A stretch of 64,000 nucleotides of DNA from the NCBI GenBank assembly GCA_964635905.1, contig CAZWPK010000001.1:224293-288292 (forward strand). Direction: 5' to 3'. A program made the translations under genes and the position numbers. Position 1 is the stretch's first letter; each line of letters starts with the position of its first letter. Of the stretch, positions 1,277-48,340 are shown piece by piece. The stretch is from an uncultured Pseudomonadales bacterium. Its GTDB lineage: Bacteria > Patescibacteriota > Microgenomatia > UBA1400 > UBA12028. The notes beneath the pieces are model-generated. The model was not told where the DNA came from. It worked only from the letters and a program-made list of their open reading frames with translations, and searched no databases.

Positions 1277-1310
1277 TTGCAAAGTGTTGCAAGATGTTGC
1301 AATGTTGCAA
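1277..1310. promoter_or_regulatory. Four tandem copies of the palindromic hexamer TTGCAA at roughly 10-bp spacing, overlapping the fic start
   Basis: TTGCAA occurs at 1277-1282, 1287-1292, 1297-1302 and 1305-1310. The hexamer is self-complementary and the spacing is about one helical turn, so it looks like an operator. Confidence 0.35.
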
Positions 1311-24446: not shown

Positions 24447-24998
24447 ATGTTTAATTTCGCCCCACTCAAACAAGACGCTGAAAAACTCATTGAGGTGTTT
24501 GCTTCCGATCTTGCCACCATTCGCACCGGTCGAGCCAAGCCATCGCTCGTCGAAAACATTGAGGTCCAGGCCTATGGCTCGATGATGAAAATGTTAGAGG
24601 TTGCTTCCATTACTGCTCCCGATTCGGCCTCCATTGTAATTAAGCCATGGGACAAATCGGTCTTAAAAGACATTGAAAAAGCCATCTCGATATCCGATCT
24701 CCACATTCCACCCGTCAATGATGGAGAACAAATCCGTCTAAACATTCCTCCATTAACCGGTGAGCGTCGACAAGAACTCATTAAGCTTGTGGCGCAAAAA
24801 AAGCATGCCGCCCTAGACATGCTGCGGGACATCCGGACCAAGTACAAGAAAATGGTCGATAACCAAAAAGGCCAGGCTGGAGTAAGTGAAGATGACATCA
24901 AGCGCGATCTAGAGGCACTGCAAAAGCATACCGAAGAATTCACCGCTAAGCTAGAAGAGCGCGCTGCAGGGAAAGAAAAAGAGCTTTCCGAGCTTTAA
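24447..24998 (+). CDS. frr: Ribosome recycling factor
   Basis: LATIRTGRAKPSL, IPPLTGERRQELIK, 183 aa. Confidence 0.9.
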   Translation: MFNFAPLKQDAEKLIEVFASDLATIRTGRAKPSLVENIEVQAYGSMMKMLEVASITAPDSASIVIKPWDKSVLKDIEKAISISDLHIPPVNDGEQIRLNIPPLTGERRQELIKLVAQKKHAALDMLRDIRTKYKKMVDNQKGQAGVSEDDIKRDLEALQKHTEEFTAKLEERAAGKEKELSEL

Positions 24999-25061: not shown

Positions 25062-26159
25062 ATGGATGTTGTGATTTTCATTCTAATCTTATTGTTTCTC
25101 ATCGTGATTCACGAGTTGGGGCATTTCTTTACTGCTCTTTGGTGCAAGGTAAACGTTTTAGAATTTGGAATTGGAATTCCACCGAAAGTTAAAACACTCT
25201 TTACCTATAAAGGAATTCCCTTCACGCTCAACGCTCTTCCGTTTGGTGGTTTCGTACGCATGGAAGGTGAAGGAGACGAGAGTGGTACTTCATCTGTCTC
25301 GGGTCGAGTTTCACTCCGTGATCTACCTTTGCATAAGAAATTATTCGTCGTGCTTGCAGGAGCAGCAGTTAATTTTATTTTTGGCATTGTTGCATTTTCA
25401 ATCATCTTTTCGATTATTGGTATTCCTGTCAAAGATCCCTACGTTCGGATCACTGGGACTTCTGAAGGTAGTCCAGCCCAGCTTGCAGGAATACAGGCAG
25501 GTGACCAAGTTGTTTCCATGACCTTAGAAGACAAATCCACAATTGAAATTACGAATAAGGATCAATTTGAAGAGATTATCAAGTCGCAAAAAGGGAAATT
25601 CATTACAGTAACTTTTCTGCGTCAAGATCAACTAACCGATGTGACAGCAAAAGTTCGAACTGATGATGAAATTCCTCCGGGAGATGGTGCGCTGGGGGTT
25701 GGTTTCACGCAAGAAACGTTGAAGCGCTTCCCTTGGTATCAGGTTCCATTTCGTGCAGTTGTAGTGGGAACAGAGCAGTCGGTCCAGTTCGGTACTTTAA
25801 TCGTTACTTCTTTAGGTGACATGTTTGGCAAACTATTTAGTAACGGCACAGTACCCACAGATGTGGCTGGACCAATCGGAATCGCCTATAGAGTGCAGAA
25901 GGACAATCTATTTGAGGGAGGACCCATCGTGATGCTAAACTTTGCCGCTATGCTCTCGGTGAACTTGGCAATTATGAATGTGCTTCCGATTCCAGCACTG
26001 GATGGGGGACGCGCCTTTTTCATGTTGATCGAAAAACTATTTCCGAAAGGAAAGCGCGTACAGATTGAACAGGTCTTTAATAACGTGGGCTTTACGCTCC
26101 TGATTGGGTTACTAATCCTGATTACTTTCAAGGATGTGTTGCAAATCTTTCGACCGTAA
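25062..26159 (+). CDS. rseP: RIP metalloprotease RseP (site-2 protease, M50) with PDZ domain
   Basis: HExxH in a TM helix (IHELGHFFTAL), a PDZ-like middle region, and the C-terminal LDGG motif PIPALDGGRAF. Confidence 0.8.
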   Translation: MDVVIFILILLFLIVIHELGHFFTALWCKVNVLEFGIGIPPKVKTLFTYKGIPFTLNALPFGGFVRMEGEGDESGTSSVSGRVSLRDLPLHKKLFVVLAGAAVNFIFGIVAFSIIFSIIGIPVKDPYVRITGTSEGSPAQLAGIQAGDQVVSMTLEDKSTIEITNKDQFEEIIKSQKGKFITVTFLRQDQLTDVTAKVRTDDEIPPGDGALGVGFTQETLKRFPWYQVPFRAVVVGTEQSVQFGTLIVTSLGDMFGKLFSNGTVPTDVAGPIGIAYRVQKDNLFEGGPIVMLNFAAMLSVNLAIMNVLPIPALDGGRAFFMLIEKLFPKGKRVQIEQVFNNVGFTLLIGLLILITFKDVLQIFRP

Positions 26160-26203: not shown

Positions 26204-27859
26204 ATGCGTCGAGCTTTTTTTTGTTTTTTATTTCTTAGCTTTTTTACATTTCTTGCATTTCAGTCTGCGTCTCCAGTCTTTGCTGGTCGCACCTGTTGTG
26301 AACGTCGCTATCTACCCAACGGCGCGGTAGATCCTGCTGGCTGTAATGCCTGTACCGAAGGCATTGACACGAAAAACTATGGAGATAGTTGTGGATCTGT
26401 TTCATACCCCTCCTGTCAGGTGTGTCCTGCCAGTCGACCCATAGCCAATGCCTGTGGTGGTGGAGGGAGTACTCCACCTCCAACCGCACCACCCACTGCG
26501 CCCCCACCAGTGTGTACTTGTGAAGCTTGGAAGCCAGCCGAATGTGGAGCTGCAGGAGGTTGTCCATTGGGTCAACGACGCTTGATGCGAACCTGTAGTC
26601 CTTCTGGCTGTCAGACCCAGAGTATGTGTCAGGCGGACCCGACGTGTTCTGCCACAGTAACTTCCACGATTCAAACGGACCCATCGTTAGCAGGGAAGGC
26701 ACCACCACAACGCATCGGTGGATTTGGCGGTGGATACTGTATCTCGGCTGATCCAGGAAGTCCGATTAGTACGGGAAGCATTTCGGCGAAAGACGCAGCT
26801 GGAAAAGTAACGAATGGAACTATTAGTTCTGGTGTCTATACGATTTCGAATCTAGATCCCAAAACCAATGAATACACGATCACCTATGACCCGTTAAATC
26901 CCAACCTCACCTGTACGTGTCCAGCGGGCTGTGTGTATACCGGGAAAAGTGCCCCAACCACAGAAGATTTGAAATTCTTTGTCTCCCCAATGGGAACCTC
27001 GTGGTTCCAGACCATGGGTGGCGACATCGGTGCCTTTGCCTCCGGTGGAACAAGTATTCGCAATCGGATCCCTGACACGTGTACCGAGCCGTGGTGTCAG
27101 CCGTACTTGTCACTTCCCACCACTCCCACACAGCTGCAAACTGTTGGGGCAGTGGTGACGAATCGCGGAGCAAGTATCGATCTGCAAGAACAAGCTGGTA
27201 CCCAAGAATTCTATGTTGGACCGTCTGGAATTAATCGCGTTGCCAAGTTGCCAACCTCACTTGTTTGTCGCGAAAATTATGACTATTTTTACCGGCTCTA
27301 TAGCATGGGAGCAAGTCCCACACTAGACTTTACTAACCCAATCGATGCTAGAAAACCAACCGTGCCTCCACTGAATGGAAAACCCGCCTATTTCTATCAG
27401 GGGAGCGTCCCGCTCACAATTGATTCTCCCTGGCAAGTTTCTGGAAACGAAAGCATCGTGATCTTTGTAAAAGGGAACTTGGTCATCAAAAATACGATCA
27501 AGGTCGCAAACGGAGCATTCCTTTCCTTTATCGTTTCAGGTTCGATTACCATTGATCCAAGTGTAGGGACCACGGACTTTACTAGCGTCTCCGGAGTGGT
27601 TCAGGGAGTGTACATTGCCAATGGCAATATCGTAGTCAACTCGACAGGGGCAGCCGGAACAGACTTAAAATTCGTGGGAGAGGGCATCTTTGCGACTTGC
27701 GGAAGTGTTCGATTACCTCGAGACTACAAGAATGGCGGCAATGGACTGCAGAATAACAAGGTACCCGCCTCGCTCTTTGTGTATCGCCCCGACTTCGTCC
27801 AAAATACGCCCTCAAGGATGAAAGAGAGCCGGATCAACTGGCAAGAAGTTGCGCCCTAA
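26204..27859 (+). CDS. Secreted Cys-rich surface protein sharing a paralogous C-terminal domain with 29920-32823
   Basis: Signal peptide MRRAFFCFLFLSFFTFLAFQSASPVFA, a Cys-rich N-terminal region, and a PPPTAPPTAPPP linker. The C-terminal ~315 aa (from CTCPAGCVY to NWQEVAP) align with the C-terminus of the 967-aa protein. Confidence 0.6.
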   Translation: MRRAFFCFLFLSFFTFLAFQSASPVFAGRTCCERRYLPNGAVDPAGCNACTEGIDTKNYGDSCGSVSYPSCQVCPASRPIANACGGGGSTPPPTAPPTAPPPVCTCEAWKPAECGAAGGCPLGQRRLMRTCSPSGCQTQSMCQADPTCSATVTSTIQTDPSLAGKAPPQRIGGFGGGYCISADPGSPISTGSISAKDAAGKVTNGTISSGVYTISNLDPKTNEYTITYDPLNPNLTCTCPAGCVYTGKSAPTTEDLKFFVSPMGTSWFQTMGGDIGAFASGGTSIRNRIPDTCTEPWCQPYLSLPTTPTQLQTVGAVVTNRGASIDLQEQAGTQEFYVGPSGINRVAKLPTSLVCRENYDYFYRLYSMGASPTLDFTNPIDARKPTVPPLNGKPAYFYQGSVPLTIDSPWQVSGNESIVIFVKGNLVIKNTIKVANGAFLSFIVSGSITIDPSVGTTDFTSVSGVVQGVYIANGNIVVNSTGAAGTDLKFVGEGIFATCGSVRLPRDYKNGGNGLQNNKVPASLFVYRPDFVQNTPSRMKESRINWQEVAP

Positions 27860-27989
27860 TACGTGCTTCTAACGCGTAATTATTGATTTTCCTACAAATG
27901 TGCTAAAATATAGTCTTAATGAAGCGATCTGAGTGCTTAAGCACCCACGAAGTAGATGATCTCTTTGTTACTTACGTAGACAAATAAGT

Positions 27990-28013
27990 AACCGCTCCTG
28001 CGGTTCTTTTTTT
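27990..28013 (+). terminator. Intrinsic terminator
   Basis: AACCGC-tcct-GCGGTT followed by a T-run. A 12-nt perfect palindrome GTGCTTAAGCAC lies upstream at about 27935. Confidence 0.55.
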
Positions 28014-28052
28014 ACCCTACCGCAAGTCTTATAGTAATAGAGTAAAGGTTAT

Positions 28053-29315
28053 ATGGGAAGAGAAGTAGTAAAAGACTTAAAGACATTGAAATCAAATAAC
28101 ATTTTAAGAGATCTACGATACGAGCAAATTTACGCAAACGCTAAACGCGTGCCCGCAGTTCTAGCTGCAGCGGGGGCAACACTCGTTTTTGGATTGTCAG
28201 CTGCTCAAGCAGATGCAGCAAGACCTCAAGATATTTCCAAAGCTCTCAAATCAAGTCCGGAGCACACTAGCATTATGGCTCCCGGAGCTGACTTTGCAGA
28301 GAAGTTTTTCTTGCGACCTGAGTATCAAGGCGGAGGCCCTTTTATTGGCTCTGTTACCATTACAACGGAGGGAAATGCTGGGGCAAACATTCGTACAGCA
28401 CCTGTTTCCGGTGAGATTATCATGGTAGCCCCCAATGGAACTCAGTTTAACGTGTTAGAGGTAAGCTCGGATGGATGGTACAAGATTCAATTAGCAGATG
28501 GGCAAATCGGGTGGGTTTCAGCTACACTCGGTATTTTTTCTGCACAACCTGTTGCAGCTCCTGAACCTGGTACAGACCCCGCTACAAGAGAACCTCAAGG
28601 TGGTGCTGCCACATTGGAGTCTCCCATCATCCCCGGGCCTGATGGTATTCCTACGCCATCGTTCCTAACTCCAGGACAGGTGATAGGACCAATGAGTGCC
28701 TTTGGATACCCTGAAATCCAGCATGTAATACAAGCGCATCCGGACTGGTTTGAACCAGCAGATTCCTCCCCAGAGTTAACGGGGACAGGTTTTACTCAAT
28801 CAATGGTGCTCGAAGGTGTTCTTCGAGGATGTAGTGTAGAGCAAACAACGTATAATGACCAATTGTATTGTGTGATCAAAGTTCAATCTGGGAATCCGCA
28901 TGGGATCCCAAGTTTCTTCCTTATTTTTCGCAATACGATTGTGGATGGTCAAATGGGAGGCAATGTTGGTGTGATCCAAAATGGACAAGCGATCACCATA
29001 AACGATGCAGAAGAAGTACGGGACCGTTATACTCAGGCTCCTGCAATGACTCGAGTTCGAATAGAATTTCGTCCTAGTGCGTTTCGTGGGACAGACGTTT
29101 ACGGGGAGCTAGATGCAGCGCTGATGACAGCCGCGATCGAGAATCTTAGAATTGCAATTGAAACTGGGACCCCGATTGCGTCTCTAGACGTAACGGGAAT
29201 CATTCAAGATTTAGCGCAACGACGAAATGTGCCGGTAGATGATCTCCAAAATTTTGCTGGGCATTTGATCTCTGGGTTACCAGTTGGATTCCGCACATCG
29301 TTAGTCCTGTCGTAA
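28053..29315 (+). CDS. Secreted protein with bacterial SH3 (SH3b) domain
   Basis: N-terminal signal/TM (VPAVLAAAGATLVFGLSAAQADA). SH3b-like segment NIRTAPVSGEIIMVAPNGTQFNVLEVSSDGWYKIQLADGQIGWVSATL. Confidence 0.55.
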   Translation: MGREVVKDLKTLKSNNILRDLRYEQIYANAKRVPAVLAAAGATLVFGLSAAQADAARPQDISKALKSSPEHTSIMAPGADFAEKFFLRPEYQGGGPFIGSVTITTEGNAGANIRTAPVSGEIIMVAPNGTQFNVLEVSSDGWYKIQLADGQIGWVSATLGIFSAQPVAAPEPGTDPATREPQGGAATLESPIIPGPDGIPTPSFLTPGQVIGPMSAFGYPEIQHVIQAHPDWFEPADSSPELTGTGFTQSMVLEGVLRGCSVEQTTYNDQLYCVIKVQSGNPHGIPSFFLIFRNTIVDGQMGGNVGVIQNGQAITINDAEEVRDRYTQAPAMTRVRIEFRPSAFRGTDVYGELDAALMTAAIENLRIAIETGTPIASLDVTGIIQDLAQRRNVPVDDLQNFAGHLISGLPVGFRTSLVLS

Positions 29316-29374
29316 CCGTGCTGGTACGAAGCTCTCTTGAATTCTGAAGTAGAACACGCTACTTTATAAGGAGT

Positions 29375-29923
29375 ATGGTTGTTTCAAAATCGCTAGTAGC
29401 GGTTGGAGGTTTTTTTATCGTATTAGCGTTGGTCATTTCCGGTGTGTTTTTTTTCTTATCTAGACCAAAAACAACTACTGTTCCCACCAGTCTGAATGCT
29501 CAACCTTCAAGCAGTAATTCAAAGTATAAAGTCACTAAGCTCTCTGTAGATGATTCTAGCTACCTCTACATTATAGAAGGGAAGTTTACTCAAAACTTAA
29601 ATAACCTTGGTTCCTTATCTCGATCTACATTTTTGATTGATGGCGAATCAACGAATGAAATCATGGTGACGTTTCCTGCCGAGGCATCTAGTTTTTTTGT
29701 CGGAACGAAAAATGCCAAGGGTGGGATGGAATGGGAAAATCAACCGTTTTCTGCGGTCAAATCTAGAATTTTTCCTGGAGCAACACTTCAACTGCGCATG
29801 CAACTCTCCGCAACTACTCCAGAACATGAACAGCAAATGAAGACGTTAGACGAACTTATTAAAGCTTCTGAAATAAAGCCAACGTACTATGCTATTCAGC
29901 CAGATGGGATTGGTTTCTTATGA
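29375..29923 (+). CDS. hypothetical membrane-anchored protein
   Basis: N-terminal TM helix LVAVGGFFIVLALVISGVFFFL, 182 aa. The stop overlaps the start of the downstream 967-aa gene. Confidence 0.45.
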   Translation: MVVSKSLVAVGGFFIVLALVISGVFFFLSRPKTTTVPTSLNAQPSSSNSKYKVTKLSVDDSSYLYIIEGKFTQNLNNLGSLSRSTFLIDGESTNEIMVTFPAEASSFFVGTKNAKGGMEWENQPFSAVKSRIFPGATLQLRMQLSATTPEHEQQMKTLDELIKASEIKPTYYAIQPDGIGFL

Positions 29924-32823
29924 TTCGATCAATCCTCATAGGAACTATGTTTTTTGTTTTCGCATCTTTTCTGAAGCCCGAAACGATTTTTGCCCAAGTC
30001 TGTGCACCTACCCGAATTATTAATCAATATGCCTGTGTAACACTGGGCCAGACCTGCAATAACTGGGAACCTCGGTGTGCTTGGTCTGGAGAAAGATGTG
30101 GTCTCGGCGACTTGGGGCGAGCTACTGGAGTCTGCGGCGATCCTGGTGATGGAGTGTGTACCAACTACTGTACCAGCTATACCCCAACGGGTCCTCCCAC
30201 GTGCCGTAACACGGGAACACAGGTAGTGGCATGTTCTGCCGCTGCCGCTGGCTGTTCTTGGACTAATCAAATTATCGATTGTAACGGAGGAACGAGTGGA
30301 GGAACTGGTCAATGTACCGAATCCTCTGTAGGCGTAACCTACCAGTGTTGGGTTGTGGGTGGGGGAACTCCCGGACCGACTGGCGGTGGTGGCGGTGGAG
30401 GAGGCTCTTGGGGCGGATGTGGTTCGTGTGGATCGTGTCCGCCATTTGGTGGGAGTAGTCAGTGTGTGCAAGCTCCCGATGGAACCTGTCGCTGGGATCC
30501 AACCTCGTGTGGAGGTGGCTCCACGTGTGCTTCCGCTGGTCAGGGTTGTGGTGGCTGGGCGGATACCACAACGTGTTGTTCCGGCCTAACCTGCAACTGG
30601 CTACCCGGTGATGCAGGATATAGTTGCGGAGATTGTCGAAGTCCACAAGTGATTGCGCGCTATTGTGGAACGGATCCTTCCTTGTGGTGTGGCCAAAACT
30701 ACATTTGTAATAACGGCAATTTCACCTGTCCGAATGCACAGTCGTTTGAAATTCCTTCGGCACCGACTGGAATGACACCTGCAGATGGTGCCATTGTTAC
30801 AAGCACAGGCAGCCCGAGTACGCAGCTTCGCTGCAATGCAGCCTGTTCCGATGACTATGACTGTGGAGCAAACCGAGTCGAAGCACGACTCAATCGCGGT
30901 AGTTTTGCGGTAAACCCCTATACGTATTTTAGATTTATTGGATTTTTGGAAAACAGCGCACTCATCTCCATTGGGTCGTCTCCAAGTACATTGAATCCGC
31001 GCATGACCTACCGGCCTCCTGGTGTGTTCACAACGGGAGTGGCTGGTGGATATCCCGTTCAATATACAACGACGCAGGGAGCGGGCGTAAACATGGCCTC
31101 AGGGACAACTTCTGTGGGGGTATCAGGCTATCGTGATGCGACGGGCTCACTGGTTGATTTCTTTATCAATGGCGCCTTTAAGCAAAACATCAACTTCAAT
31201 TCCGTGATGACTGGACAACCGCAAGGGGACTACCGGGTGAGTTTTGCCGCGGGAGCTGAAAAACCGTTTGCCTGTTCTTCCGGTGTGTGTCGATTACGCG
31301 CAAACGTATCCGATGCAACGTGTGCGGGATCTCCATCATCCACTGAAAAATTTGTGCAGTTGTCCTGGAATCCCGGGCCTTCCAATAGTTCTGGTCCTAT
31401 CTATCGAGAGTGGGAAGTCCAGGTGGTACCCGAAGGATCTAACTGTAACAATCCTGCTTCCTTCTGTGGTACAGTGCTCAAACCTTCCTATCGATTCGTG
31501 CCCAGTGCGGCTTTCTCGCGTTACTCTTGGTCAGTGCGAACGATCAATGATGTTTGTACCTATCAGGGAGCCCCACGCGTCAATGGTCGCTGGAGTGTCC
31601 CTCATTTGTTTGTGGTAGAGGATAAAGTCGATTTTGGTTCCACCATTAACATGGATAACTCTCGAACTGCCTTAGTTGTGGGTGGTGTTTGTACCACGTC
31701 CGGTGTCCCTGCTGCGTATACCGGCGGAGGGAACGTGACAATTACCAAAGCCCCATTCACACAGACAGTCCCAGTGTCCACGACGAATGGATCCTATTCC
31801 TTTACCCAAGTCGATCGAGGAACTGGGTATAACGTCAGTTTACAGTTAACGCAGCCACCCGTCGGACAACCACAACTAGTCTGTACCTGTCCCGTTGGCT
31901 GTACGTACAGCAATGTCAGTGTTCCCCAGAATTTACCTTTTTACGTCAGCCAGGTGGCCATGCCATGGTTCCAGACGCAAGGTGCAGATATTGCTGCCTT
32001 AACTTCTGGAAGCGGTGTGAGTATGCAAGATCCGATCGCGCCATTGCTATTAAATGGGGCCAAAATTTCCAAGCCATTTGATTCTTCAAATTACGCGACG
32101 ATTGGACAGTACACCCAAGGTGCATTAGTCGTGCAACGCTCATCGATCGTGGACTTAGATTCTGCCGCAGGAAATCAAGAAACGAATATCTCGGATCCCA
32201 ACCGTCTGGTTCGGACCTCGTACTCCAATGTCTGTAAAGAAAATTACGATTATTTTTATCGAAAGTTTAGTTTGGGGGTGAACCCCGCCAATGACATTAC
32301 CTCTCTGAACGGTGCGAACGCTCCGGTCTCGGATAAGCCTAATGGTAAAAACGCCTACTATGTAGCGTCAGATTTGAGTGTGAACTCGAATTGGTCATTA
32401 ACGGGTAATCGGAAGATGGTCATCTTTGTGAACGGTGATCTCACCATCAATGCCAATATTACTGTCGCCAACAGCGCCTTCCTAGCCTTCATCGTCAAAG
32501 GAAATATCATCGTGTCGCCCACCGTCGGAACTTCAGACGTGAGTCAAACAGGGAATGGTCAAGTTCAAGGTGTGTATATTGCCAACGGAAATTTGACGGT
32601 ACAGAGTGCAGGAGCAGCTGGGACAGATCTTAAATTTATCGGAGAAGGTGTGTTTGCAGTCTGCGGAAACGTCCGACTTCCACGTGATTTTAAAAATGGA
32701 GGCGACCCTTCCCGCAATAACTTGAGCCCAACCTCACTCTTTATCTACCGACCGGATCTGCTTTCCAATACTCCAGACCTAATGAAAGATAACTTGAGTA
32801 ACTGGAAAGAGATCGCTCCCTAA
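29920..32823 (+). CDS. Large secreted Cys-rich surface protein (967 aa) with poly-Gly tract and paralogous C-terminal domain
   Basis: A signal peptide, numerous CxxC/Cys pairs, G8 and GSCGSC tracts. The C-terminal ~315 aa (from CTCPVGCTY to NWKEIAP) are paralogous to the C-terminus of 26204-27859, including shared blocks ENYDYFYR, VQGVYIANGN, AAGTDLKF and VRLPRD. Confidence 0.6.
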   Translation: MIRSILIGTMFFVFASFLKPETIFAQVCAPTRIINQYACVTLGQTCNNWEPRCAWSGERCGLGDLGRATGVCGDPGDGVCTNYCTSYTPTGPPTCRNTGTQVVACSAAAAGCSWTNQIIDCNGGTSGGTGQCTESSVGVTYQCWVVGGGTPGPTGGGGGGGGSWGGCGSCGSCPPFGGSSQCVQAPDGTCRWDPTSCGGGSTCASAGQGCGGWADTTTCCSGLTCNWLPGDAGYSCGDCRSPQVIARYCGTDPSLWCGQNYICNNGNFTCPNAQSFEIPSAPTGMTPADGAIVTSTGSPSTQLRCNAACSDDYDCGANRVEARLNRGSFAVNPYTYFRFIGFLENSALISIGSSPSTLNPRMTYRPPGVFTTGVAGGYPVQYTTTQGAGVNMASGTTSVGVSGYRDATGSLVDFFINGAFKQNINFNSVMTGQPQGDYRVSFAAGAEKPFACSSGVCRLRANVSDATCAGSPSSTEKFVQLSWNPGPSNSSGPIYREWEVQVVPEGSNCNNPASFCGTVLKPSYRFVPSAAFSRYSWSVRTINDVCTYQGAPRVNGRWSVPHLFVVEDKVDFGSTINMDNSRTALVVGGVCTTSGVPAAYTGGGNVTITKAPFTQTVPVSTTNGSYSFTQVDRGTGYNVSLQLTQPPVGQPQLVCTCPVGCTYSNVSVPQNLPFYVSQVAMPWFQTQGADIAALTSGSGVSMQDPIAPLLLNGAKISKPFDSSNYATIGQYTQGALVVQRSSIVDLDSAAGNQETNISDPNRLVRTSYSNVCKENYDYFYRKFSLGVNPANDITSLNGANAPVSDKPNGKNAYYVASDLSVNSNWSLTGNRKMVIFVNGDLTINANITVANSAFLAFIVKGNIIVSPTVGTSDVSQTGNGQVQGVYIANGNLTVQSAGAAGTDLKFIGEGVFAVCGNVRLPRDFKNGGDPSRNNLSPTSLFIYRPDLLSNTPDLMKDNLSNWKEIAP

Positions 32824-33023: not shown

Positions 33024-33812
33024 TTATGGTTCCGGGAGAAAATGGGGCTGATTGGAAAACGCTGGTTCTCCATATAACTCATTCCAAATAGTCCAGAGGT
33101 GGTTGGACTGCGGACTCTGGGAGAATCCTACCCAGGCATCAAATTCCGATTCAGATGTCGCTTGCTGGGATAGGTAACCGTACACCACCCGACTGCCAAT
33201 ATTCAAACGAGGTTCGTAGCGATAGAGCTTGGATCCTGCAATCGCCAGTGATGAAGGGAAGGTCCGTTCTGTTCGGATACCTTCTCTAAGGATAATCGCA
33301 AGTTGTTTGATTTGTGATGCAAGGGTGGGCTCTGATCGCTTGAGCATGTTCGATACTGGTGCATTCGTTGCATTCCAAATTTCCGGAGACTGTAACCGCA
33401 TGAACGCAATCAAAATTTTGGGTTGAATCCGAGTATTTATGGAAGTGTAACTGAGAATCTCAGCCAAGGTATAACGCGTTTGTTGCGGTGTCGTTTGCAT
33501 CGTTCCATCAAGATCCGTAAAAAAGGTCGGAGAAACTGTTTCGGTATAGTTTTTTAAGTTTACGTTTGCAGACCGTTGTAAGATCTTTTCTGTGGAATAC
33601 ACGAGATACGGAGGAAGACTAATTCCTTTTGGTGTGGGAGTACATTCATGTGAAAACTGGACATTACAGTCATCCAGGAGAACAGGCAAGATCACTTGAG
33701 AATCTTGAGCACGAATCTGTGGATCAATCGTTTCTGACTTCCGCAGTGTATACACAACAATTGCCATCGACAAAAAGGCAAAAAACGCAAAGACTATTCC
33801 AATCGTTTTCAT
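33024..33812 (-). CDS. hypothetical membrane-anchored/secreted protein
   Basis: N-terminal TM MKTIGIVFAFFAFLSMAIVVYTL, 262 aa. Confidence 0.45.
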   Translation of the reverse strand: MKTIGIVFAFFAFLSMAIVVYTLRKSETIDPQIRAQDSQVILPVLLDDCNVQFSHECTPTPKGISLPPYLVYSTEKILQRSANVNLKNYTETVSPTFFTDLDGTMQTTPQQTRYTLAEILSYTSINTRIQPKILIAFMRLQSPEIWNATNAPVSNMLKRSEPTLASQIKQLAIILREGIRTERTFPSSLAIAGSKLYRYEPRLNIGSRVVYGYLSQQATSESEFDAWVGFSQSPQSNHLWTIWNELYGEPAFSNQPHFLPEP

Positions 33813-33912: not shown

Positions 33913-34908
33913 ATGAGTGCACCATCCAAATCTAAACCAACCTCATCCAAGTCTAAAACTTCTTCTGACATTCCAGTTGTTAATGTCTTCGATGAAGAAG
34001 TCAAAGAAACGACACCAGCTCCACGACGTTCGGTTGTCGTAGAAATTGAAGATGTTCCTCCTCAAGCTCCAGAACAACCGGTAGCAGCGCAGCCGCAAAC
34101 CTTGCCAACCCCAACGGAGATTTCTGTCGATCCTGCCCATGACACGACCGTTGCCACCGCAGAACCAGAAGTCTCTTTTGCACCCCCATTAGAAGCACCA
34201 GCTGCCCCCAGTGCTCCTGTACCGGACGTGGTACAACCCAACGAACCTGCACTGCCATCCTTTTTCGAGCACGATCTCAAAGGTGAAGTTGCAGCTCCCG
34301 CCGCACAAGCGCCCAGCGTCTCCTTTGACTTGCCGCAGGCTTCTTCGGAAGGTTCGATGAATTCTGGTGTGGTCCCACAGGCCGTCGTCGGTGAAATTCA
34401 TGAGATCAACGACGGTGGAAATTCGAAGAAAATCATCGGCATCATCTTAATGTTGATTGCAGTCGTTCTTTTAGGTGTTGGTGCCTTTGTTGTCTATTCC
34501 AAGACGCAGTCAAGTTCCAATGAGCCAGCCCCAACCCCAATGATTCAACCAACAGCCACCCCAACTCCAGTTCCGTCTGCTACGCCACAAGCTAGTGACA
34601 GTGCGTCGTTGGTCGCAACTAATAGCGCCGAATTTATCGCCTTAAAGAAGAAATACAAAGTGGATGTGCTCAATGGAACGAAGGTCGCTGGACTTGCCAG
34701 TAAGCAAGCCGCCTTGGTAAAGAAAGAAGGCTATACCACGGGAACCGTTGGAAATGGTGATGAGGAAAAAGCAGGAACTATTACTGTTCCCGCGACAGCC
34801 GCAGCGCTTGCTAAAGATTTGCAACGCATCCTAGCGGACTTTACCTTCACGATAACCGAAGATACAAAAGCGACGAGCATTACAGTCACCTTGGGTGAAC
34901 CGAACTAA
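33913..34908 (+). CDS. Membrane protein with disordered Pro/Ala-rich N-terminus and C-terminal LytR_C-like domain
   Basis: Central TM IIGIILMLIAVVLLGVGAFVVY. The C-terminus (KVDVLNGTKVAGLASKQAALVKKEGY...ITV) resembles the LytR/CpsA/Psr C-terminal domain. Confidence 0.5.
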   Translation: MSAPSKSKPTSSKSKTSSDIPVVNVFDEEVKETTPAPRRSVVVEIEDVPPQAPEQPVAAQPQTLPTPTEISVDPAHDTTVATAEPEVSFAPPLEAPAAPSAPVPDVVQPNEPALPSFFEHDLKGEVAAPAAQAPSVSFDLPQASSEGSMNSGVVPQAVVGEIHEINDGGNSKKIIGIILMLIAVVLLGVGAFVVYSKTQSSSNEPAPTPMIQPTATPTPVPSATPQASDSASLVATNSAEFIALKKKYKVDVLNGTKVAGLASKQAALVKKEGYTTGTVGNGDEEKAGTITVPATAAALAKDLQRILADFTFTITEDTKATSITVTLGEPN

Positions 34909-42768: not shown

Positions 42769-44346
42769 ATGTCTGAAGAACAACGACGCCTTCTTGAGAA
42801 ACAACTGTGGGCCGTTGCAAATATTCTCCGCGGCAAGATGAATGCTGATGAATACCGAAACTATATCTTGGGATTCATCTTCTACAAATATCTTTCCGAA
42901 AAACTCGAAAAATTTGTCAACGAAAAGCTTCTTGCTAGAGAATCATACACATTTTCAACAATTGATGGAAAAAGCCCAAAGGGGAAATCTGTCCTAGAAG
43001 AAATAAAAGAGGCCTCCGTGGAGCATTTAGGCTTTTTTCTTAAGCCGACGGATTTGTTTGGTTTCTTGGTCAAAAAGGGGAACGGAGAAATATCAGGAGA
43101 AAGCACCTTCATTCTTGAAGATTTAAAAAATGTACTAAATACCATTGAACAAACGTCGATGGGTACTGCAAGTGAAGACGATTTCAAAGGTCTTTTTGAT
43201 GATGTGGTGTTGACCTCTCCAAAACTTGGGAAGTCTGAGCAAAAGAAAAATGAAGTCATCGTTGAGGTTTTGACGAAATTAAGCGAAATTGATTTCAGAC
43301 TTGAAGATTCAAAGAGTGATCTGCTGGGGGATGCCTACGAATACCTCATTGGTGAATTTGCCGCAGGTGCAGGCAAAAAGGGTGGCGAATTCTATACTCC
43401 AGCACAGGTTTCCAGATTACTTGCTCAAATTGTAACAGAAGGGAAAAAGCGCCTGAAATCAGTGTATGACCCGACTTGTGGCTCTGGCTCACTCCTCCTT
43501 CGTATTGGGGACTTTGCCAACGTGTCTACATACTACGGGCAAGAACTGAACCCAACCACCTACAATTTAGCCCGCATGAACATGATTCTGCATGGTGTGC
43601 CATTTGATAGTTTCAGCATCAGGCAAGGTGACACGCTTGTTGACGACATGCATTTGGATTTACAGGCTGAAGCGGTGGTGGCAAACCCTCCTTTTTCAGC
43701 AGAATGGAAAAGTGACAGTGACCCTCTCTTGGTTCAAGATGAGCGGTTTTCACAATATGGCAGGCTAGCACCAAAAAATAGGGCTGACTATGCTTTTGTT
43801 GCTCACATGCTTCACCACTTAGCCGAAAATGGAACTATGGCAGTAATTTTGCCTCATGGTGTACTTTTTGCTGGCGGTGCGAATGAAACAATTCGTAAGT
43901 ACATTCTTGAGAATCAAAACTCACTTGACGCAGTAATTGGATTGCCTTCTGATCTCTTTTATGGCACAGGTATTCCCGCAGTCGTCATGGTTTTCAAAAA
44001 GTGCAGAAAAGAGGATGACGACGTTCTCTTTATTGATGCTTCTAGAGAATTTGAAAAAGGAAAAAATCAAAATTGGCTAAGTGATGAAAATATCAATAAA
44101 ATATTTGAAACATATTCACAGAGAAAAGAAATCGAACGATATTCTCACAGAGCAAGACAGGACGAAATTAAGGAAAACGAGTTCAACCTAAACATACCAC
44201 GGTATGTTGATACGTTTGAAGAAGAGCCGGAATTGGACCTAAACAGAATAGCCAAAAATATAAGATCTCTTCAAAGGACTGAAATAGAGTCAAAAAAAAA
44301 TATTGCTGAATTTTGTAAAGAACTTAATATTGATAATCCATTTTAA
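42769..44346 (+). CDS. hsdM: Type I restriction-modification system, N6-adenine methyltransferase subunit
   Basis: An N-terminal HsdM_N-like region, the catalytic motif VVANPPFS, and an AdoMet-binding DPTCGSGSLL. Confidence 0.85.
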   Translation: MSEEQRRLLEKQLWAVANILRGKMNADEYRNYILGFIFYKYLSEKLEKFVNEKLLARESYTFSTIDGKSPKGKSVLEEIKEASVEHLGFFLKPTDLFGFLVKKGNGEISGESTFILEDLKNVLNTIEQTSMGTASEDDFKGLFDDVVLTSPKLGKSEQKKNEVIVEVLTKLSEIDFRLEDSKSDLLGDAYEYLIGEFAAGAGKKGGEFYTPAQVSRLLAQIVTEGKKRLKSVYDPTCGSGSLLLRIGDFANVSTYYGQELNPTTYNLARMNMILHGVPFDSFSIRQGDTLVDDMHLDLQAEAVVANPPFSAEWKSDSDPLLVQDERFSQYGRLAPKNRADYAFVAHMLHHLAENGTMAVILPHGVLFAGGANETIRKYILENQNSLDAVIGLPSDLFYGTGIPAVVMVFKKCRKEDDDVLFIDASREFEKGKNQNWLSDENINKIFETYSQRKEIERYSHRARQDEIKENEFNLNIPRYVDTFEEEPELDLNRIAKNIRSLQRTEIESKKNIAEFCKELNIDNPF

Positions 44347-44348
44347 GT

Positions 44349-45536
44349 ATGGCTTCCAAATCCATAAAAAAACCAAAATTGAGATTTCCTAAGTTCACTT
44401 CTGAACTGCGTTTGTTCCAGCTTGGAAATGTGATAGAAGAGTATAGCGAAAAGACTAAGATTAATAATCAATACAAGGTGTTAACTTCATCGAGAAAGGG
44501 ACTATTAGCACAAGAGGAGTACTACGGTGATAGTAATAGGATAACTCAGCGCGAAAATGCTGGATTTAATATCATCCCCAATGGATTTCTAACTTATCGA
44601 TCTCGGAGCGATGATGGGAAGTTTCATTTTAACATAAACGATACGGGTGATTATGCTGCAATAAGTGTCTACTATCCAGTTTTTAGATGCAAAAGTGATA
44701 ATGAATTATATCTACTTAATCTATTAAATTCTAACTGGAAAAAACTATATAAATACAGCGTAGGAACATCTCAAAAAGTACTGTCTTTTAGAGACCTAAA
44801 AAGTATAGAATTCTTATTTCCAGAATTCGAAGAACAAAAAGAAATCTCAACTTTTTTTTCAAAGATTGACTGTTTCATCGATAATCTTAAAAAGCATAAA
44901 TGTGAGCTAGAGCTCTATAGAAAAGCGGTACTTCAACTGTTCTTTACTAAAAAAATTCTCTTTAAAGACAAAGAAGGTCGCGATTTCCCTGACTGGGAAC
45001 TAAAAAAAGCAGGTGAAATATTCGCAAACCACACTGATAAAAATCATCAGGGAGATTTGCCCTTATTAGCCGTTACCCAAGATCGTGGGGTAATCAAGAG
45101 AAGTGATTTAGATTTAAGAATCAATACGTCCGAAGCTGGTGTAAAGAGCTACAAAATTATTGATGTAGGTGACTTCGTAATAAGTTTAAGGTCCTTTCAA
45201 GGTGGTATTGAGTATTCGAATATCAGAGGTATCTCTAGTCCTGCATACACGGTATTGAGAAATAAAGTTCCCATCTGCCATGATTTTTTTAGAATTTACT
45301 TTAAAAAGGAAAGCTTTATCAAGCAGTTAAACTCAATGATCTATGGAATCCGTGATGGGAAACAAATTAGCTACTCAGAATTCAAGAATATGAAGCTTCC
45401 ATTTCCTTCGTTAGACGAGCAAAAGAAAATTGCTGACTTTATAAAATCACTTGATGAGTTAATTGTTCTCAAAGAAAAACAAATAGAAATGGCTGAGCAA
45501 TGGAAAAAGGGTCTGCTTCAACAAATGTTTGTATAA
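44349..45536 (+). CDS. hsdS: Type I R-M specificity subunit (two target-recognition domains)
   Basis: 395 aa, very AT-rich, with a duplicated TRD architecture and conserved central and C-terminal coiled-coil spacers. It starts 2 nt after the hsdM stop. Confidence 0.7.
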
Positions 45537-45541
45537 GAACT

Positions 45542-48340
45542 ATGACCCATCAATCTGAATTTCAACTTGAACAAGAATTACTTCAACAACTCATTTCACT
45601 TGGATTTGAGTTGGTTTCCGTTCCTGATAACGATGCTCTGACCATCAATCTCCGTTCTCAGCTTGAAAAATTCAATGAAGTGAAGTTTTCTGATACTGAG
45701 TTTTCTCGAATCCTCAATCACCTCCAAAAAGGAGATAGATTTCAGAAATCAAAAACGCTGCGTGATAGATTTGCGCTGACACGCGATGATGAGTCAATCT
45801 TTTATGTTCGTTTCTTCAACACTGAGAAACGGTGCAAGAATGAGTACCAGGTCACGCATCAGGTCAACCAAGAAGGCACCCATAAAAATCGCTATGACGT
45901 GACACTGCTGATCAATGGCTTTCCATTAGTACAAATTGAGTTAAAGCGTCGTGGCATGGAAATGAAGGAGGCATTCAACCAAATTCAACGCTACCATCGC
46001 CATTCTTTTGCAGGCACGCTTTTCGAATATGTCCAGATCTTCGTGATTTCAAATGGAGTAAATACGAAGTATTTCTCCAACAATCCGAAACAATCATTCG
46101 AGCAGACGTTCTACTGGACGGACAAAGACAATGTAAAAATTACAAAATTACGTCAGTTTACCGATATTTTTCTAGAGAAGTGCACGATATCAAAGATGAT
46201 TGCTGAATACATTGTGCTGGCTGAATCATTACAAATTCCGATGGTTCTTCGACCATACCAATACTATGCAGTGAACGCCATTGAACAACGAGTTCGAGAG
46301 TCTAGTAAAAACGGGTACATTTGGCATACAACAGGATCAGGCAAGACCTTAACTTCCTATAAGGCAAGTCAGGTTCTTGAGCGGATGCCCGAAGTGAAAA
46401 AAGTATTGTTTGTGGTGGATAGAAAAGATTTGGACATTCAAACCACCAAAGAGTTCAATTCATTCTCCGATGGGTCTGTGGATGGGACAAACAGTACCAC
46501 TCATTTGGTTAGACAGCTCAAAGATCCCAATCGTAAATTAATTGTTACAACAATTCAAAAGCTGGATATTGCTATCTCAAGAGAATCATATTTAGAACAA
46601 TTTCCAGGCTTACAACACGAAAAAATTGTAATCATTTTTGATGAGTGTCATCGAAGTCAATTTGGACAGACTCATGCTCGCATCTCCAATACCTTTAAAA
46701 ACGCACAACTGTTTGGTTTTACTGGAACTCCGATTTTTGCCGATAATAATGTGGGAGGTGTAACTACAGCAGATGTTTTTGGTGAGTGTTTGCACAAGTA
46801 CATCATTACCCATGCGATTGATGACAATAATGTGCTCGGATTTGCTGTTGAGTATGTAGGGAAGTATCGGCAGCGATATCCGGAAACACGCTTCACCGAC
46901 AACTTTGAAGAAGTTCAGGTGGAAGGAATAGACACTAAAGAGGTCTTAGAGAGTGATGACCGATTAAGTAAGATAACAGACTATGTGCTCACCGACTGGA
47001 AAAGAAAAACAAAAAATGGACAATTTAATGCGCTGTTTGCAACACCAAATATCGAGGTGCTCAAAAAGTACTACCGATTATTTAAGGAAAAAAAGCCTGA
47101 CTCCTTACGCATTGCCACGATCTTTACGTACCAGGCCAATGAAGATGAGAGTTCTGACATGTTGGACGTAGATGTATTTGCAGGCGAAGGTACGGTAGGG
47201 AATCTGCACTCCAGAGACTTTCTTGAAGCATGTATTACGGATTACAACGCATTGTACGGCACAAACTACTCAACCGAACGCTTCTATGATTACTATCGCA
47301 ATTTACAGGAAAGAATAAAGAATAAGCAGGTAGATCTTGTACTGGTAGTCAACATGTTTCTGACAGGTTTCGATAGTCCTCGGCTCAACACGCTCTATGT
47401 GGACAAAAACTTACGGTACCATGGCCTAGTTCAGGCCTATTCCCGTACCAACCGATTGCTAAACTCTACGAAGCCCCATGGAAACATTGTCTCTTTCAGA
47501 AATTTGAAGGAAAACACTGATCAAGCCTTGGCTCTCTTTGGTGATGAACATGCCAAAGAAGTCGTGTTTAAGAAACCCTATGAAGAACAGCAGCGGGACT
47601 TCGTGAAGGAACTTACTCTTCTCAAGGAGTCGGTACCAACAGTGGAGAGTGTTGATGATTTGCAGGGAGATGAGCAACGCTCAATCTTCGTAAAGTCTTT
47701 TCGTAACCTATTACGGATTAAATCATCACTTGAAACCTTTGCTGAATTTAGTTTTAGCGATCTTAGAATAACCGAACAAGAATTTTATGACTATCAAAGC
47801 AAATATTTAGATATTCACGAGGAGCGTAAGCGACATAGCCCAGCAGTTGAATCCATTCTTGATCAGATCGATTTTGAGCTTGAGCTCACAACAACTGATA
47901 TCATCAACTTTGACTACATCATTCAGCTCATATCAGGCTTGAAAAATATAAGCTCTGACACCATCAGAGAAAAGAAAACTGAAGATATCCTCAAATTGTT
48001 TGATAGAGATGTGAAGCTTCGCAAGAAGAAAGAACTCATTCGCAAGTTTATCGAAGAAAACCTACCCCAAATTTCAAGCGGGGACGATGTTGAGAAGGCA
48101 TTTGGCGCTTTTTGGAATAGTGAGCGATCAACTGCCTTAAAAGAAGTTGCCCAAGCGGAAAATATCTCTGTAGAGAGTCTTGAGGGAGTAATTAGTGAAT
48201 ACCTCTATACTCAAAAGCTACCGAAAGGGCAGGATATTATTGAATTGTTACCACAGACTCCGTTCATGTCGGAAAGGCAAAGTATCATCGATCGAGTGAG
48301 AAATGCGATACAAACTATTGTTGATATGTTCGAATGGTAA
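45542..48340 (+). CDS. hsdR: Type I R-M restriction endonuclease/helicase subunit
   Basis: Walker [13 protein letters not shown] and DEAD/H-box [11 protein letters not shown] 45542 follows the hsdS stop; the ORF-track start at 45500 overlaps hsdS. Confidence 0.85.

Follow-up and report, generated by a model that had tools for sequence, protein, structure and literature searches.

Two large secreted proteins, A and B, encoded in a 64,000-nucleotide stretch of DNA (the window, meaning the whole stretch analysed), end in paralogous copies of a C-terminal domain (CTD) that, judged by sequence comparison, defines a large and previously undescribed family centred on Patescibacteria. We propose that A and B are modular, disulfide-rich adhesins presented on a solenoid stalk and that the family acts in a PilY1-like role on pili, a reading to which we would give a probability of about 0.4. 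How the ultrasmall Patescibacteria recognise and attach to their hosts has yet to be settled; suspicion falls mainly on type IV pili, and the adhesive pilus components named so far are tentative and come from Saccharibacteria only. The CTD family brings together several thousand clusters, secretion, hypervariable Cys-rich heads (some with PA14 or fn3), a ComZ-like solenoid and a fixed place at the pilus cluster in many species, which makes it a tangible candidate for the adhesive component. Its members are candidates for the proteins by which these tiny symbionts attach, probably in association with pili, and the family offers a domain that can be annotated, a partner pilin and a means of comparing head variability with host range. 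Should the link to pili be wrong, a large unannotated family of surface proteins would still have gained a defined fold, extent and conserved gene neighbourhood.

Two Cys-rich secreted proteins with a paralogous domain

Gene A (26204..27859, plus strand) encodes 551 aa and gene B (29920..32823, plus strand) 967 aa, as delineated by the ORF list, BLASTP and Cys counts. The signal peptide of A (aa 1-27) is followed by a Cys-rich region (aa 28-205) and the CTD (aa 206-551); that of B (aa 1-25) leads into a Cys/Gly-rich region (aa 26-320), a beta-rich middle part (aa 321-619) and the CTD (aa 620-967). Both signal peptides are of the Sec/SPase I-like type, with the cleavage sites, judged by eye and not by a prediction tool, lying between ...PVFA and GR in A and between ...TIFA and QV in B. 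The first-pass annotation had pointed to signal peptides and Cys-dense N-terminal regions in the two proteins, and the counts bear this out: 17 of the 25 Cys of A fall within mature residues 28-205 (9.6%) and 34 of the 46 of B within residues 26-320 (11.5%), against a mean of 0.69% for the other 55 genes of the window. The poly-Gly and GSCGSC tracts noticed in the larger protein are also there, as G8 and GSCGSC at residues 155-175 of B. A and B are probably Sec-exported, disulfide-rich modular surface proteins, in which the variable Cys-rich N-terminal part is presumed to be the ligand- or host-binding end.

Neither protein carries a prepilin signal (class III, cut between G and F..xE) or matches N_methyl or TIGR02532 in Pfam and NCBIfam. 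Their extreme C-termini (...INWQEVAP in A, ...SNWKEIAP in B) are without a hydrophobic tail, and inspection of the sequence, Pfam and NCBIfam revealed no LPXTG motif, C-terminal TM helix, SLH or other wall-binding or anchor family, which sets them apart from sortase-anchored proteins (LPXTG with tail) and S-layer wall proteins (SLH, wall modules). Nor do they show the C-terminal beta-barrel or N-terminal TPS domain, together with a closely similar beta-helix, of an autotransporter or two-partner-secretion passenger.

The CTDs, at 26819..27856 in A and 31777..32820 in B (both plus strand), share 45% identity over 354 aa (BLASTP, E = 1e-91; B's copy also by tblastn), and tblastn found no further copies within the window. 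Homology of the two C-terminal regions had been recognised from the sequence, and all of the motif blocks then quoted (CTCP.GC.Y, ENYDYFYR, VQGVYIANGN, AAGTDLKF.GEG.FA.CG.VRLPRD.KNGG and NW.E.AP) are present in the A-B alignment; the length then given, ~315 aa, falls short of the ~346 aa measured here, which include ~30 aa more on the N-terminal side, and the former start of B's domain, 31881, lies one base off frame.

Copies of A and of B, exact or at >=90% identity, are found in several independent assemblies from NCBI, Logan and JGI, and other genomes hold separate orthologues of each: A-type genes immediately 3' of rseP (L002, L005, L007, L085 and the P0032 contig) and B-type genes in P0019-P0021, L005, L006 and L007. 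An origin of the pair by assembly artefact or recent duplication is ruled out by these copies and orthologues.

A beta-solenoid capped by a conserved tail

The suggestion that the CTD might be a beta-helix was a good one, since the predicted model is a right-handed beta-solenoid. In A, the domain passes from a beta-sandwich end with a CxCPxGC motif into the solenoid and then into a conserved tail (RPD..N.P..M......WQEVAP) that runs to the final residue. The predicted fold is the right-handed triangular solenoid of IBP-1 and, equally, the IBP-like solenoid of ComZ. The conserved part of the family would be a solenoid of this IBP-1/ComZ type, ~300 aa long and capped by the near-invariant C-terminal tail, and would most likely act as a stiff stalk and a module for docking. 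The tail is modelled with pLDDT 76-87, so that a structured cap fits better than a free docking strand. It is unlikely, in our estimate, that the solenoid is instead a secreted polysaccharide- or cell-wall-degrading enzyme (a beta-helix lyase or hydrolase) that remodels or attacks the host envelope, with the Cys-rich region binding carbohydrate.

Of the two structural relatives, ComZ, the competence tip pilin of Thermus thermophilus (PDB 6qvi), has its solenoid inserted in a GspK-like pilin fold, whereas A and B have a Sec signal, no pilin domain and no detectable sequence similarity to it; no genes fusing a pilin to a solenoid in the manner of ComZ occur among the related loci. A solenoid acting as a ComZ-like DNA receptor, through which Patescibacteria would scavenge nucleotides by pilus-mediated DNA uptake, seems very improbable to us. 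Across the whole family the CTD is acidic (median pI 4.4, none >8; 6.3 in A and 5.5 in B), which makes DNA binding unlikely, the pilin fold and prepilin signal are absent, and the structural similarity to ice-binding proteins is equally strong, so that the resemblance to ComZ denotes a fold class and not a shared function.

That A and B themselves belong to the DUF3494 family of ice-binding or antifreeze proteins (IBP-1; PDB 3wp9, 6bg8, 5uyt) is scarcely credible. The identity is ~15%, the Ice_binding HMM (PF11999) matches neither protein and only 1 of 20 relatives at E 1.3e-3, leaving A and B without membership at the sequence level, and the CTD profile has 0 matches among PDB sequences. A long helix usually accompanies the solenoid in IBP-1 proteins. 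The helices of the CTD model are all short (154-160, with 7 residues the longest; 309-313; 324-328), a contrast drawn with the general picture of IBP-1 rather than with its coordinates. Further, the CTD has added the CxCPxGC motif and the RPD...WQEVAP cap, its architecture and pilus context are unlike those of known IBPs, the organisms and gene context of the family are unrelated to cold adaptation, and ComZ puts the same fold to another purpose.

A large family across Patescibacteria

In a profile search counted as clusters at 50% identity, at least 4,812 clusters match the CTD, spread over many Patescibacteria classes and some Chloroflexota. The pair had been described as a lineage-specific cell-surface or adhesion module; this extent contradicts the first half of that description, and the second stands as the most reasonable reading, given that the variable part of relatives contains PA14 (4 of 48), fn3, SdrD_B and CarboxypepD_reg modules. 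N-terminal parts change faster than the CTD (74-75% vs 89%, and 43-46% vs 54-57%).

The shared domain had further been assigned to no described family, which is right in that no functionally characterised family fits and wrong in that the solenoid core shows overlap with Pfam DUF7305 (PF23981), itself of unknown function. DUF7305 aligns with the regular solenoid core of B (aa 812-896 against model positions 50-133 of 185) at 17.9 bits and E 0.0031, below the gathering score of 27, and gives no match to A at E <= 0.1; among relatives, 6 of 20 match at E <= 0.01 and as few as 4 of 48 at E <= 1e-5. The Pfam model spans only about a quarter of the CTD and bears no functional annotation. On this sequence evidence, A and B are divergent relatives of DUF7305 and non-members under Pfam's rule. 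A literature search returned no paper or experiment on the CTD family, and nothing relevant on DUF7305/PF23981, DUF3494 in Patescibacteria, CPR pili with a beta-helix or Cys-rich surface proteins.

Type IV pilus genes beside related CTD genes

The association with pili emerges from 80 related loci, all of them retrieved by one degenerate peptide pattern and phylogenetically akin to one another. On the downstream side of the CTD gene, 25 of the 80 loci have pilin-like genes (106 of 585 genes there), and on the upstream side 1 locus has them (3 of 352 genes), an enrichment with Fisher p = 1e-19 by genes and p = 8e-7 by loci (25 vs 1); given the single-pattern recovery and the kinship of the loci, the percentages are biased and the p-values overstate independence. 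At 25 of the 80, a dedicated prepilin-type gene comes after the CTD gene, together with a convergent cluster of pilin, PilD, PilC and PilT/B genes, in which Pfam identifies N_methyl pilins, PilD (A24), PilC (T2SSF), PilT/B (T2SSE) and PilM; at L086, independent gene calls and precomputed Pfam annotation agree on such a convergent pilus cluster. The pilin gene occupies the +1 position on the same strand as the CTD gene in 21 loci, and the +1 proteins form one orthologous family, with 18 of 22 exceeding the cutoff of TIGR02532 (prepilin cleavage/methylation).

In the window itself, none of the 91 ORFs is of prepilin type and no pilus machinery genes were found. Adjacency to pilins varies with the tail of the CTD, being 2 of 33 for the W.E..P type to which the window's WQEVAP belongs and 9 of 17, 4 of 5 and 7 of 14 for other types. 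With no pilin nearby and a tail subtype so seldom beside one, A and B may have dropped out of the pilus system. The CTD of A is 36-41% identical to pilin-linked CTDs of the WQETN type, only a little below the 45% between A and B.

A recurrent three-gene unit

A cassette made up of a larger protein, an N-anchored protein of ~190 aa and a CTD protein occurs in about 40-49 loci, and the order of the SH3b protein, TM182 and B in the window matches it. The two genes between A and B had been correctly recognised as encoding an SH3b protein and a membrane-anchored protein. The former, SH3_420 (28053..29315, plus strand), is itself membrane-anchored by hydropathy, with a hydrophobic segment at ~aa 33-55 and a bacterial SH3 domain at aa 110-157 (Pfam SH3_3, E 1.4e-13); its C-terminal half matches no family and has only near-identical copies as relatives. 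An SH3_3 protein is found in the equivalent position in the P0032 contig and L085. The latter, TM182 (29375..29923, plus strand), has 182 aa and one N-terminal TM helix, and its stop lies within a 4-nt overlap with the start of B, coupling the two translationally. A hairpin with a T-run separates A from these three genes (27990..28013, plus strand; pattern scan) and is suggestive of a terminator, with the count of such sites in the region no higher than in shuffles. B is apparently made from this three-gene unit.

Across loci, the equivalence of the partner proteins appears mostly positional, with almost no sequence conservation. The small N-anchored proteins cannot be unified: BLAST places them in clusters of 8, 4, 4 and 2 members, hhalign between the clusters gives a probability of at most 30%, no Pfam family covers them, and an iterative HMM search with TM182 halted at 3 matches. 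The large "third genes" upstream show no links by BLAST and small clusters only by phmmer, in which those of L046 and L053, with no adjacent pilin, group with those of the pilin-linked L047, L052, L056 and L064. SH3_3 is present in 5 of 50 third genes, including the pilus-linked L015.

These neighbours lend themselves to another account, possible in our view if somewhat doubtful, in which A and B are envelope adhesins independent of pili, tethered by TM182 and/or the peptidoglycan-bound SH3b protein, with the solenoid stalk projecting the Cys-rich head, and the link to pili belongs to other branches of the family. It would explain a window without pilin or pilus genes, the rarity of pilins beside W.E..P-type genes, the conserved place that these genes have in many genomes, next to genes of housekeeping and the envelope (rseP, LytR_C, SH3b), and the small N-anchored protein, the commonest neighbour of CTD genes (about 40 loci) and the one coupled to B. 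However, A and B have no recognisable anchor of their own, the tether through TM182 or SH3_420 is conjectural (a fold search with TM182 gave no identification), the cassette in the window corresponds, by homology or by position, to the pilus-linked one, and the CTDs are highly identical to those of pilus-linked members.

A proposed PilY1-like role

The PilY1-like reading is proposed because the three-gene unit stands at the edge of the pilus cluster with a dedicated minor-pilin-type gene following it. A unit comparable to that of B lies at such an edge in many related species, with the minor-pilin-type gene directly after it. On the proposed reading, the family would be a non-pilin, Sec-exported adhesin whose variable part faces outward and whose conserved part is seated on minor pilins. 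A and B may be this organism's versions of the PilY1-like adhesin, encoded apart from the pilus locus. As with PilY1/PilC of Pseudomonas, Myxococcus and Neisseria, the signal peptide is of the Sec type instead of a prepilin signal, a variable N-terminal part precedes a conserved C-terminal domain, and the gene sits among minor-pilin genes beside the pilus machinery (at 25 of the 80 loci of the family, the window not being among them). The small genes alongside CTD genes are comparable to the accessory genes PilY2 or TfcP of the PilY1 system (PMC7541494, PMC8833165). The differences are equally clear: the conserved domain is modelled as a beta-solenoid and not a beta-propeller, with no Pfam match to the PilY1-type C-terminal propeller and no sequence relation, the N-terminal part of A and B is Cys-rich and not vWA-like, and the two genes lie outside any pilus locus. 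Adhesion by A and B, their docking onto pilins and their continued use of a pilus are inferred.

More tentatively still, the solenoid family might be the missing PilY1 equivalent of Patescibacteria and some Chloroflexota, a Sec-exported adhesin for the pilus tip or for priming, with the capped solenoid as its docking site on the dedicated minor pilin; the fast-evolving heads would then set the host or surface, and A and B would represent two variants for host recognition in one organism. Large putative tip adhesins are likewise encoded in the type IV pilus loci of Saccharibacteria, where the "PilX" tip-pilin candidates, with large accessory domains and non-canonical signal peptides, have been proposed as host-binding tip adhesins (PMC11623550). 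Those proteins combine lollipop pilin folds with a jelly-roll or beta-propeller, whereas the CTD family, surveyed here outside Saccharibacteria, has a solenoid and no pilin fold and comes mainly from Microgenomates, Paceibacterota-type and Chloroflexota genomes.

Chromosomal neighbourhood

Upstream of A lies rseP (25062..26159, plus strand), which encodes an M50 site-2 protease (Pfam E 1.3e-49) and is a conserved positional neighbour, and downstream of B lies a LytR_C protein gene (33913..34908, Pfam E 7e-11). Both had been noted as flanking the cluster, and both are present; a functional module is not what their presence indicates, because the position beside the housekeeping genes glyA-folD-rpsB-tsf-frr-rseP is itself conserved on the chromosome. 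The order frr, rseP, CTD gene recurs in L002, L005, L007, L038, L068, L081, L082, L085 and the P0032 contig. A functional link to RseP is unsupported, the adjacency tracking the conserved frr-rseP housekeeping block. Convergent with B is orf262 (33024..33812, minus strand), an N-anchored protein gene with no match in Pfam or NCBIfam; tblastn finds it in L003, L005, L006 and L007, conserved 3' of B-type genes, and a 268-aa minus-strand gene takes the same place in the P0032 contig.

The locus and its secreted proteins

Four same-strand genes lie between rseP and a convergent gene: A (26204-27859, 551 aa), SH3_420 (28053-29315, 420 aa), which encodes a membrane-anchored SH3b protein (Pfam SH3_3, E 1.4e-13), TM182 (29375-29923, 182 aa), which encodes a small N-anchored protein, and B (29920-32823, 967 aa). 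The 59-nt spacing from SH3_420 to TM182 and the 4-nt overlap of TM182 with B suggest a single transcription unit for the last three. A terminator-like hairpin at 27990-28005, between A and the following genes, is only suggestive as a terminator, the pattern scan that found it being overall not above shuffles. Upstream of A lie frr (24447-24998) and rseP (25062-26159, Pfam Peptidase_M50), and B is followed by orf262 (33024-33812, minus strand), a LytR_C protein gene (33913-34908, Pfam LytR_C) and nth. The orf262 product is an N-anchored protein with no family match, conserved as the convergent gene directly downstream of B-type genes in four other loci (L003, L005, L006, L007) and on the contig of the related protein P0032. 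Attempts to classify TM182 gave no assignment, A has no Pfam match, and the sole match of B is a sub-threshold one to DUF7305 (17.9 bits against a cutoff of 27); an NCBIfam scan of the locus contributed nothing beyond Pfam.

Both A and B start with a Sec-type signal peptide, and cysteine makes up 9.6% of A 28-205 and 11.5% of B 26-320 in the mature N-terminal regions, as against 0.69% in the window's other 55 genes. Over 354 aligned residues the two are 45% identical (E = 1e-91), and the alignment contains every motif block that the first-pass annotation had quoted for a homologous C-terminal domain (CTD), of which the window holds only these two copies. The export signals, the Cys-dense N-terminal regions, the intervening SH3b and membrane-anchored proteins, and the flanking RseP and LytR_C genes that it described were likewise all recovered. 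Since A, B and SH3_420 recur, unchanged or almost so, in independent assemblies from NCBI, Logan and JGI, the observation is real, and the assembly artefact that it had considered is excluded.

Fold of the shared domain

An AlphaFold2 model of A 206-551, built on a 48-sequence alignment, is almost wholly beta (mean pLDDT 89.1, pTM 0.85). Its first ~50 residues (pLDDT 53-77) look, from their sequence, like the end of a preceding beta-sandwich bearing a CxCPxGC motif; beyond them runs a regular solenoid, whose short helices fall at the ENYDYFYR block and close to the end. In this model the pLDDT of 76-87 over the conserved tail is more consistent with a structured cap than with a free peptide.

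At the sequence level the CTD has no PDB relative. Pfam DUF7305 comes closest but is related only weakly, covering the regular core (B 812-896), and our literature search found no paper mentioning DUF7305 or PF23981. By fold, the ComZ solenoid and DUF3494 are closest, the closest relative of the former being the ice-binding protein FfIBP (PMC6561018). Despite this likeness, A and B have no Ice_binding HMM match, and that they are true ice-binding proteins is highly improbable. ComZ itself has been argued to occupy the pilus tip and to bind both the neighbouring pilin PilA2 and DNA (PMC6561018). A role of the CTD as a ComZ-like DNA receptor we regard as improbable, the CTDs being acidic (median pI 4.4, none above 8). 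Structurally, a CTD protein resembles a ComZ whose solenoid has been separated from its pilin; A and B have neither a pilin fold nor a prepilin signal. Given that the defining test of each family failed, they are not filed under PilY1, pilin/ComZ, DUF3494 or DUF7305. The earlier view that the domain belongs to no described family is qualified by the weak relation to DUF7305.

Extent and architecture of the family

Word-indexed searches returned 18 and later 42 clusters. When 1.84 billion representatives were searched exhaustively with a profile, 4,812 proteins scored at E <= 1e-3, 2,479 of them at E <= 1e-30. The family is large and old, and not the lineage-specific module that had been proposed. 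A single degenerate peptide pattern applied to species-representative genomes yielded 91 loci, mostly from Patescibacteria (Woese-, Gottesman-, Beckwith-, Shapiro- and Pacebacteria, Paceibacterota) and some from Chloroflexota. Two of the latter (L010, L014) lie ~90 kb apart on one 3.68-Mb contig (CBDCER010000003.1, Aggregatilineales); their domains, each ~40-41% identical to that of A, end in WQETN, and a 296-aa protein with a twin-arginine-like signal replaces the small N-anchored protein before them. They may reflect transfer between Patescibacteria and Chloroflexota.

The 89 family ORFs from the recovered loci share a constant architecture of signal peptide, variable region (median 6.3% Cys) and CTD, with the tail motif forming the exact C-terminal end in ~70. 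By tail type, 39 are W.E..P, 21 W.E[TS]N and 11 W.EV[NDS], the other 18 having short extensions or being truncated or different. Similarity to the N-terminal parts of A or B is detectable in only 4-6 of the 89. Moreover, N-terminal parts diverge faster than CTDs between orthologues (74-75% against 89% identity; 43-46% against 54-57%), and the variable regions of relatives bear PA14 (4 of 48, best E 1.4e-27), fn3, SdrD_B and CarboxypepD_reg modules.

Association with type IV pilus loci

The genes adjoining the CTD gene were tabulated in 80 loci. About 40 have a same-strand ORF of 140-330 aa upstream, mostly with an evident N-terminal hydrophobic anchor and often at a gap of -4 to -14 nt, which is exactly the relation of TM182 to B. 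Downstream, the next same-strand gene starts with a textbook prepilin signal (…G|FTLIELLVV…) in 21 loci. When the motif is relaxed slightly, pilin-like genes number 106 of 585 downstream (25 loci), against 3 of 352 (1 locus) in the upstream half, which acts as an internal control drawn from the same genomes; the p-values (Fisher, 1e-19; binomial on 25 against 1 loci, 8e-7) overstate independence because the loci are related by descent.

Gene maps reveal a fixed order in at least 13 species. The CTD strand reads [550-900 aa] [N-anchored ~190 aa] [CTD] [pilin ~180 aa], and the convergent strand carries a pilin-like gene (~160 aa), 2-3 pilins, an N-anchored gene (~320 aa, PKD), PilD, a pilin (~206 aa), PilC, PilT and PilB, supported by Pfam A24_N_bact/Peptidase_A24, T2SSF, T2SSE, PilM_2 and N_methyl. 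An independent gene call with precomputed Pfam around the related protein P0030 (L086) gives the same layout, including an MshEN+T2SSE PilB, T2SSG and PilM. The pilins directly after the CTD gene (+1 pilins) belong to a single orthologous family in which two cysteines are conserved. TIGR02532 scores above cutoff in 18 of 22, and their only other matches are weak ones to minor-pilin classes, which cover no more than the N-terminal helix in the one member and the PDB matches with coordinates shown.

The N-anchored protein of ~300-335 aa between PilD and the minor pilins (L015:11394-12305, minus strand; equivalents in at least 10 pilus loci) has a PKD domain in the L015 copy, the sole one scanned, and may be a further extracellular component of Patescibacteria pilus loci. 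In three pilus loci (L037, L039, L059) an N-anchored protein of 375-398 aa lies between two CTD genes, accompanied in L059 by a 630-aa gene. In L054 the two lie further apart, a ~417-aa protein of the same kind preceding the second, and in L024 they are in direct tandem (492 and 358 aa).

In function and genomic position, PilY1/PilC is the nearest analogue, though A and B lack its propeller; a CTD protein docked on the +1 minor pilin, as proposed below, would be a functional counterpart of PilY1. Large Saccharibacteria pilins with non-canonical signals have been proposed as tip adhesins (PMC11623550), with folds that differ from the CTD solenoid. The CTD protein would be a non-pilin adhesin encoded in pilus loci, and the literature searched contained no description of the solenoid family or of its pilus association. 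This family-level finding is relevant to host attachment in Patescibacteria and can be tested directly in silico.

Bearing of the pilus link on A and B

The analysis establishes the export signals, the paralogy of A and B, the class of fold, how far the family extends, the order of the cassette and, for other genomes, the association with pilus loci. Adhesion, docking on pilins and a continuing use of the pilus by A and B, like every statement made here on function, we infer. Our preferred reading, to which we give a probability of roughly 0.4, is that the family comprises Sec-exported adhesins that work with the type IV pilus in many species, A and B being this organism's two versions of such an adhesin. 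The conserved solenoid would serve as a rigid stalk or docking module, the Cys-rich heads would bind the target, and in many species the protein would dock on the dedicated +1 minor pilin.

For the window itself the pilus link is indirect: its 64 kb contain neither prepilin-type ORFs nor pilus machinery. When the loci with at least 3 kb of sequence downstream are sorted by tail type, pilins come after 9 of 17 W.E[TS]N, 4 of 5 W.EV[NDS] and 7 of 14 'other' genes, but only 2 of 33 of the W.E..P type, to which A (WQEVAP) and B (WKEIAP) belong. Both observations fit the main rival, which we hold somewhat less likely: A and B would act in the envelope as adhesins independent of the pilus, anchored there by TM182, by the peptidoglycan-binding SH3b protein or by both. 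Three others point against such independence. The CTD of A is 36-41% identical to pilus-linked WQETN-type domains, compared with 45% to B, so that on sequence the split between tail types is shallow. SH3_420-TM182-B matches the pilus-locus unit of third gene (the larger gene preceding the small N-anchored one), N-anchored gene and CTD gene in order, strand and spacing, and SH3_3 is detected in 5 of the 50 third genes, that of the pilus-linked L015 among them. Further, the third genes of two loci that lack adjacent pilins (L046, L053) group by sequence with those of pilin-linked loci (L047, L052, L056, L064); the other partner proteins are too divergent for sequence linkage.

Chromosomal position

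Proteins related to A and B were found in Patescibacteria, including a Candidatus Woesebacteria MAG with an A-type protein ~55% identical, and the window probably stems from a Woesebacteria-like Microgenomates bacterium. Its gene order is conserved: on the JGI contig of P0032, frr is followed by M50, an 845-aa CTD protein, a 146-aa gene, an SH3_3 protein and a 159-aa gene, and then by a 1074-aa protein, a 268-aa gene on the minus strand and LytR_C, with nth two genes later; a Woesebacteria contig (L085) is similar with a few genes inserted. A Fic gene lies between the A-type and B-type genes of the latter (L085:16417-16809), and the window has its own Fic-domain protein at 1284-2330 (+). More distant Microgenomates (L082, L038, L081) have glyA-folD-rpsB-tsf-frr-rseP, then a large unknown protein and a CTD protein. 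That A adjoins rseP most plausibly reflects a conserved position beside a housekeeping block, and no functional tie of RseP or LytR_C to A and B was found. As A-type and B-type orthologues lie side by side in L005 and L007, the A/B duplication is old.

Many MAG records (within L002-L081) are titled 'uncultured Pseudomonadales' or 'Gammaproteobacteria', which conflicts with their gene content: frr and rseP are up to 81% and 54% identical to those of the window, and Patescibacteria-type pilus loci are also present. These titles look like placeholder taxonomy.

Other features of the window

Otherwise the window consists of housekeeping genes (argG, pyrimidine genes, glyA, folD, rpsB, tsf, secDF, proS) together with a type I restriction-modification island; ARAGORN found no tRNA or tmRNA genes in the 64 kb, and no Rfam family reached its gathering threshold. 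The island (42769-48340) is a complete system of HsdM (42769-44346), HsdS (44349-45536) and HsdR (45500-48340), with a GC content of 0.35-0.40 against about 0.45 elsewhere, and was probably acquired horizontally. An ORF at 2311-3378 (-) joins an N-terminal RDD-family membrane domain to a signal peptidase I (S26) domain, an unusual fusion, and the argininosuccinate synthase at 5294-6922 (+) carries an extra C-terminal MGS-like domain.
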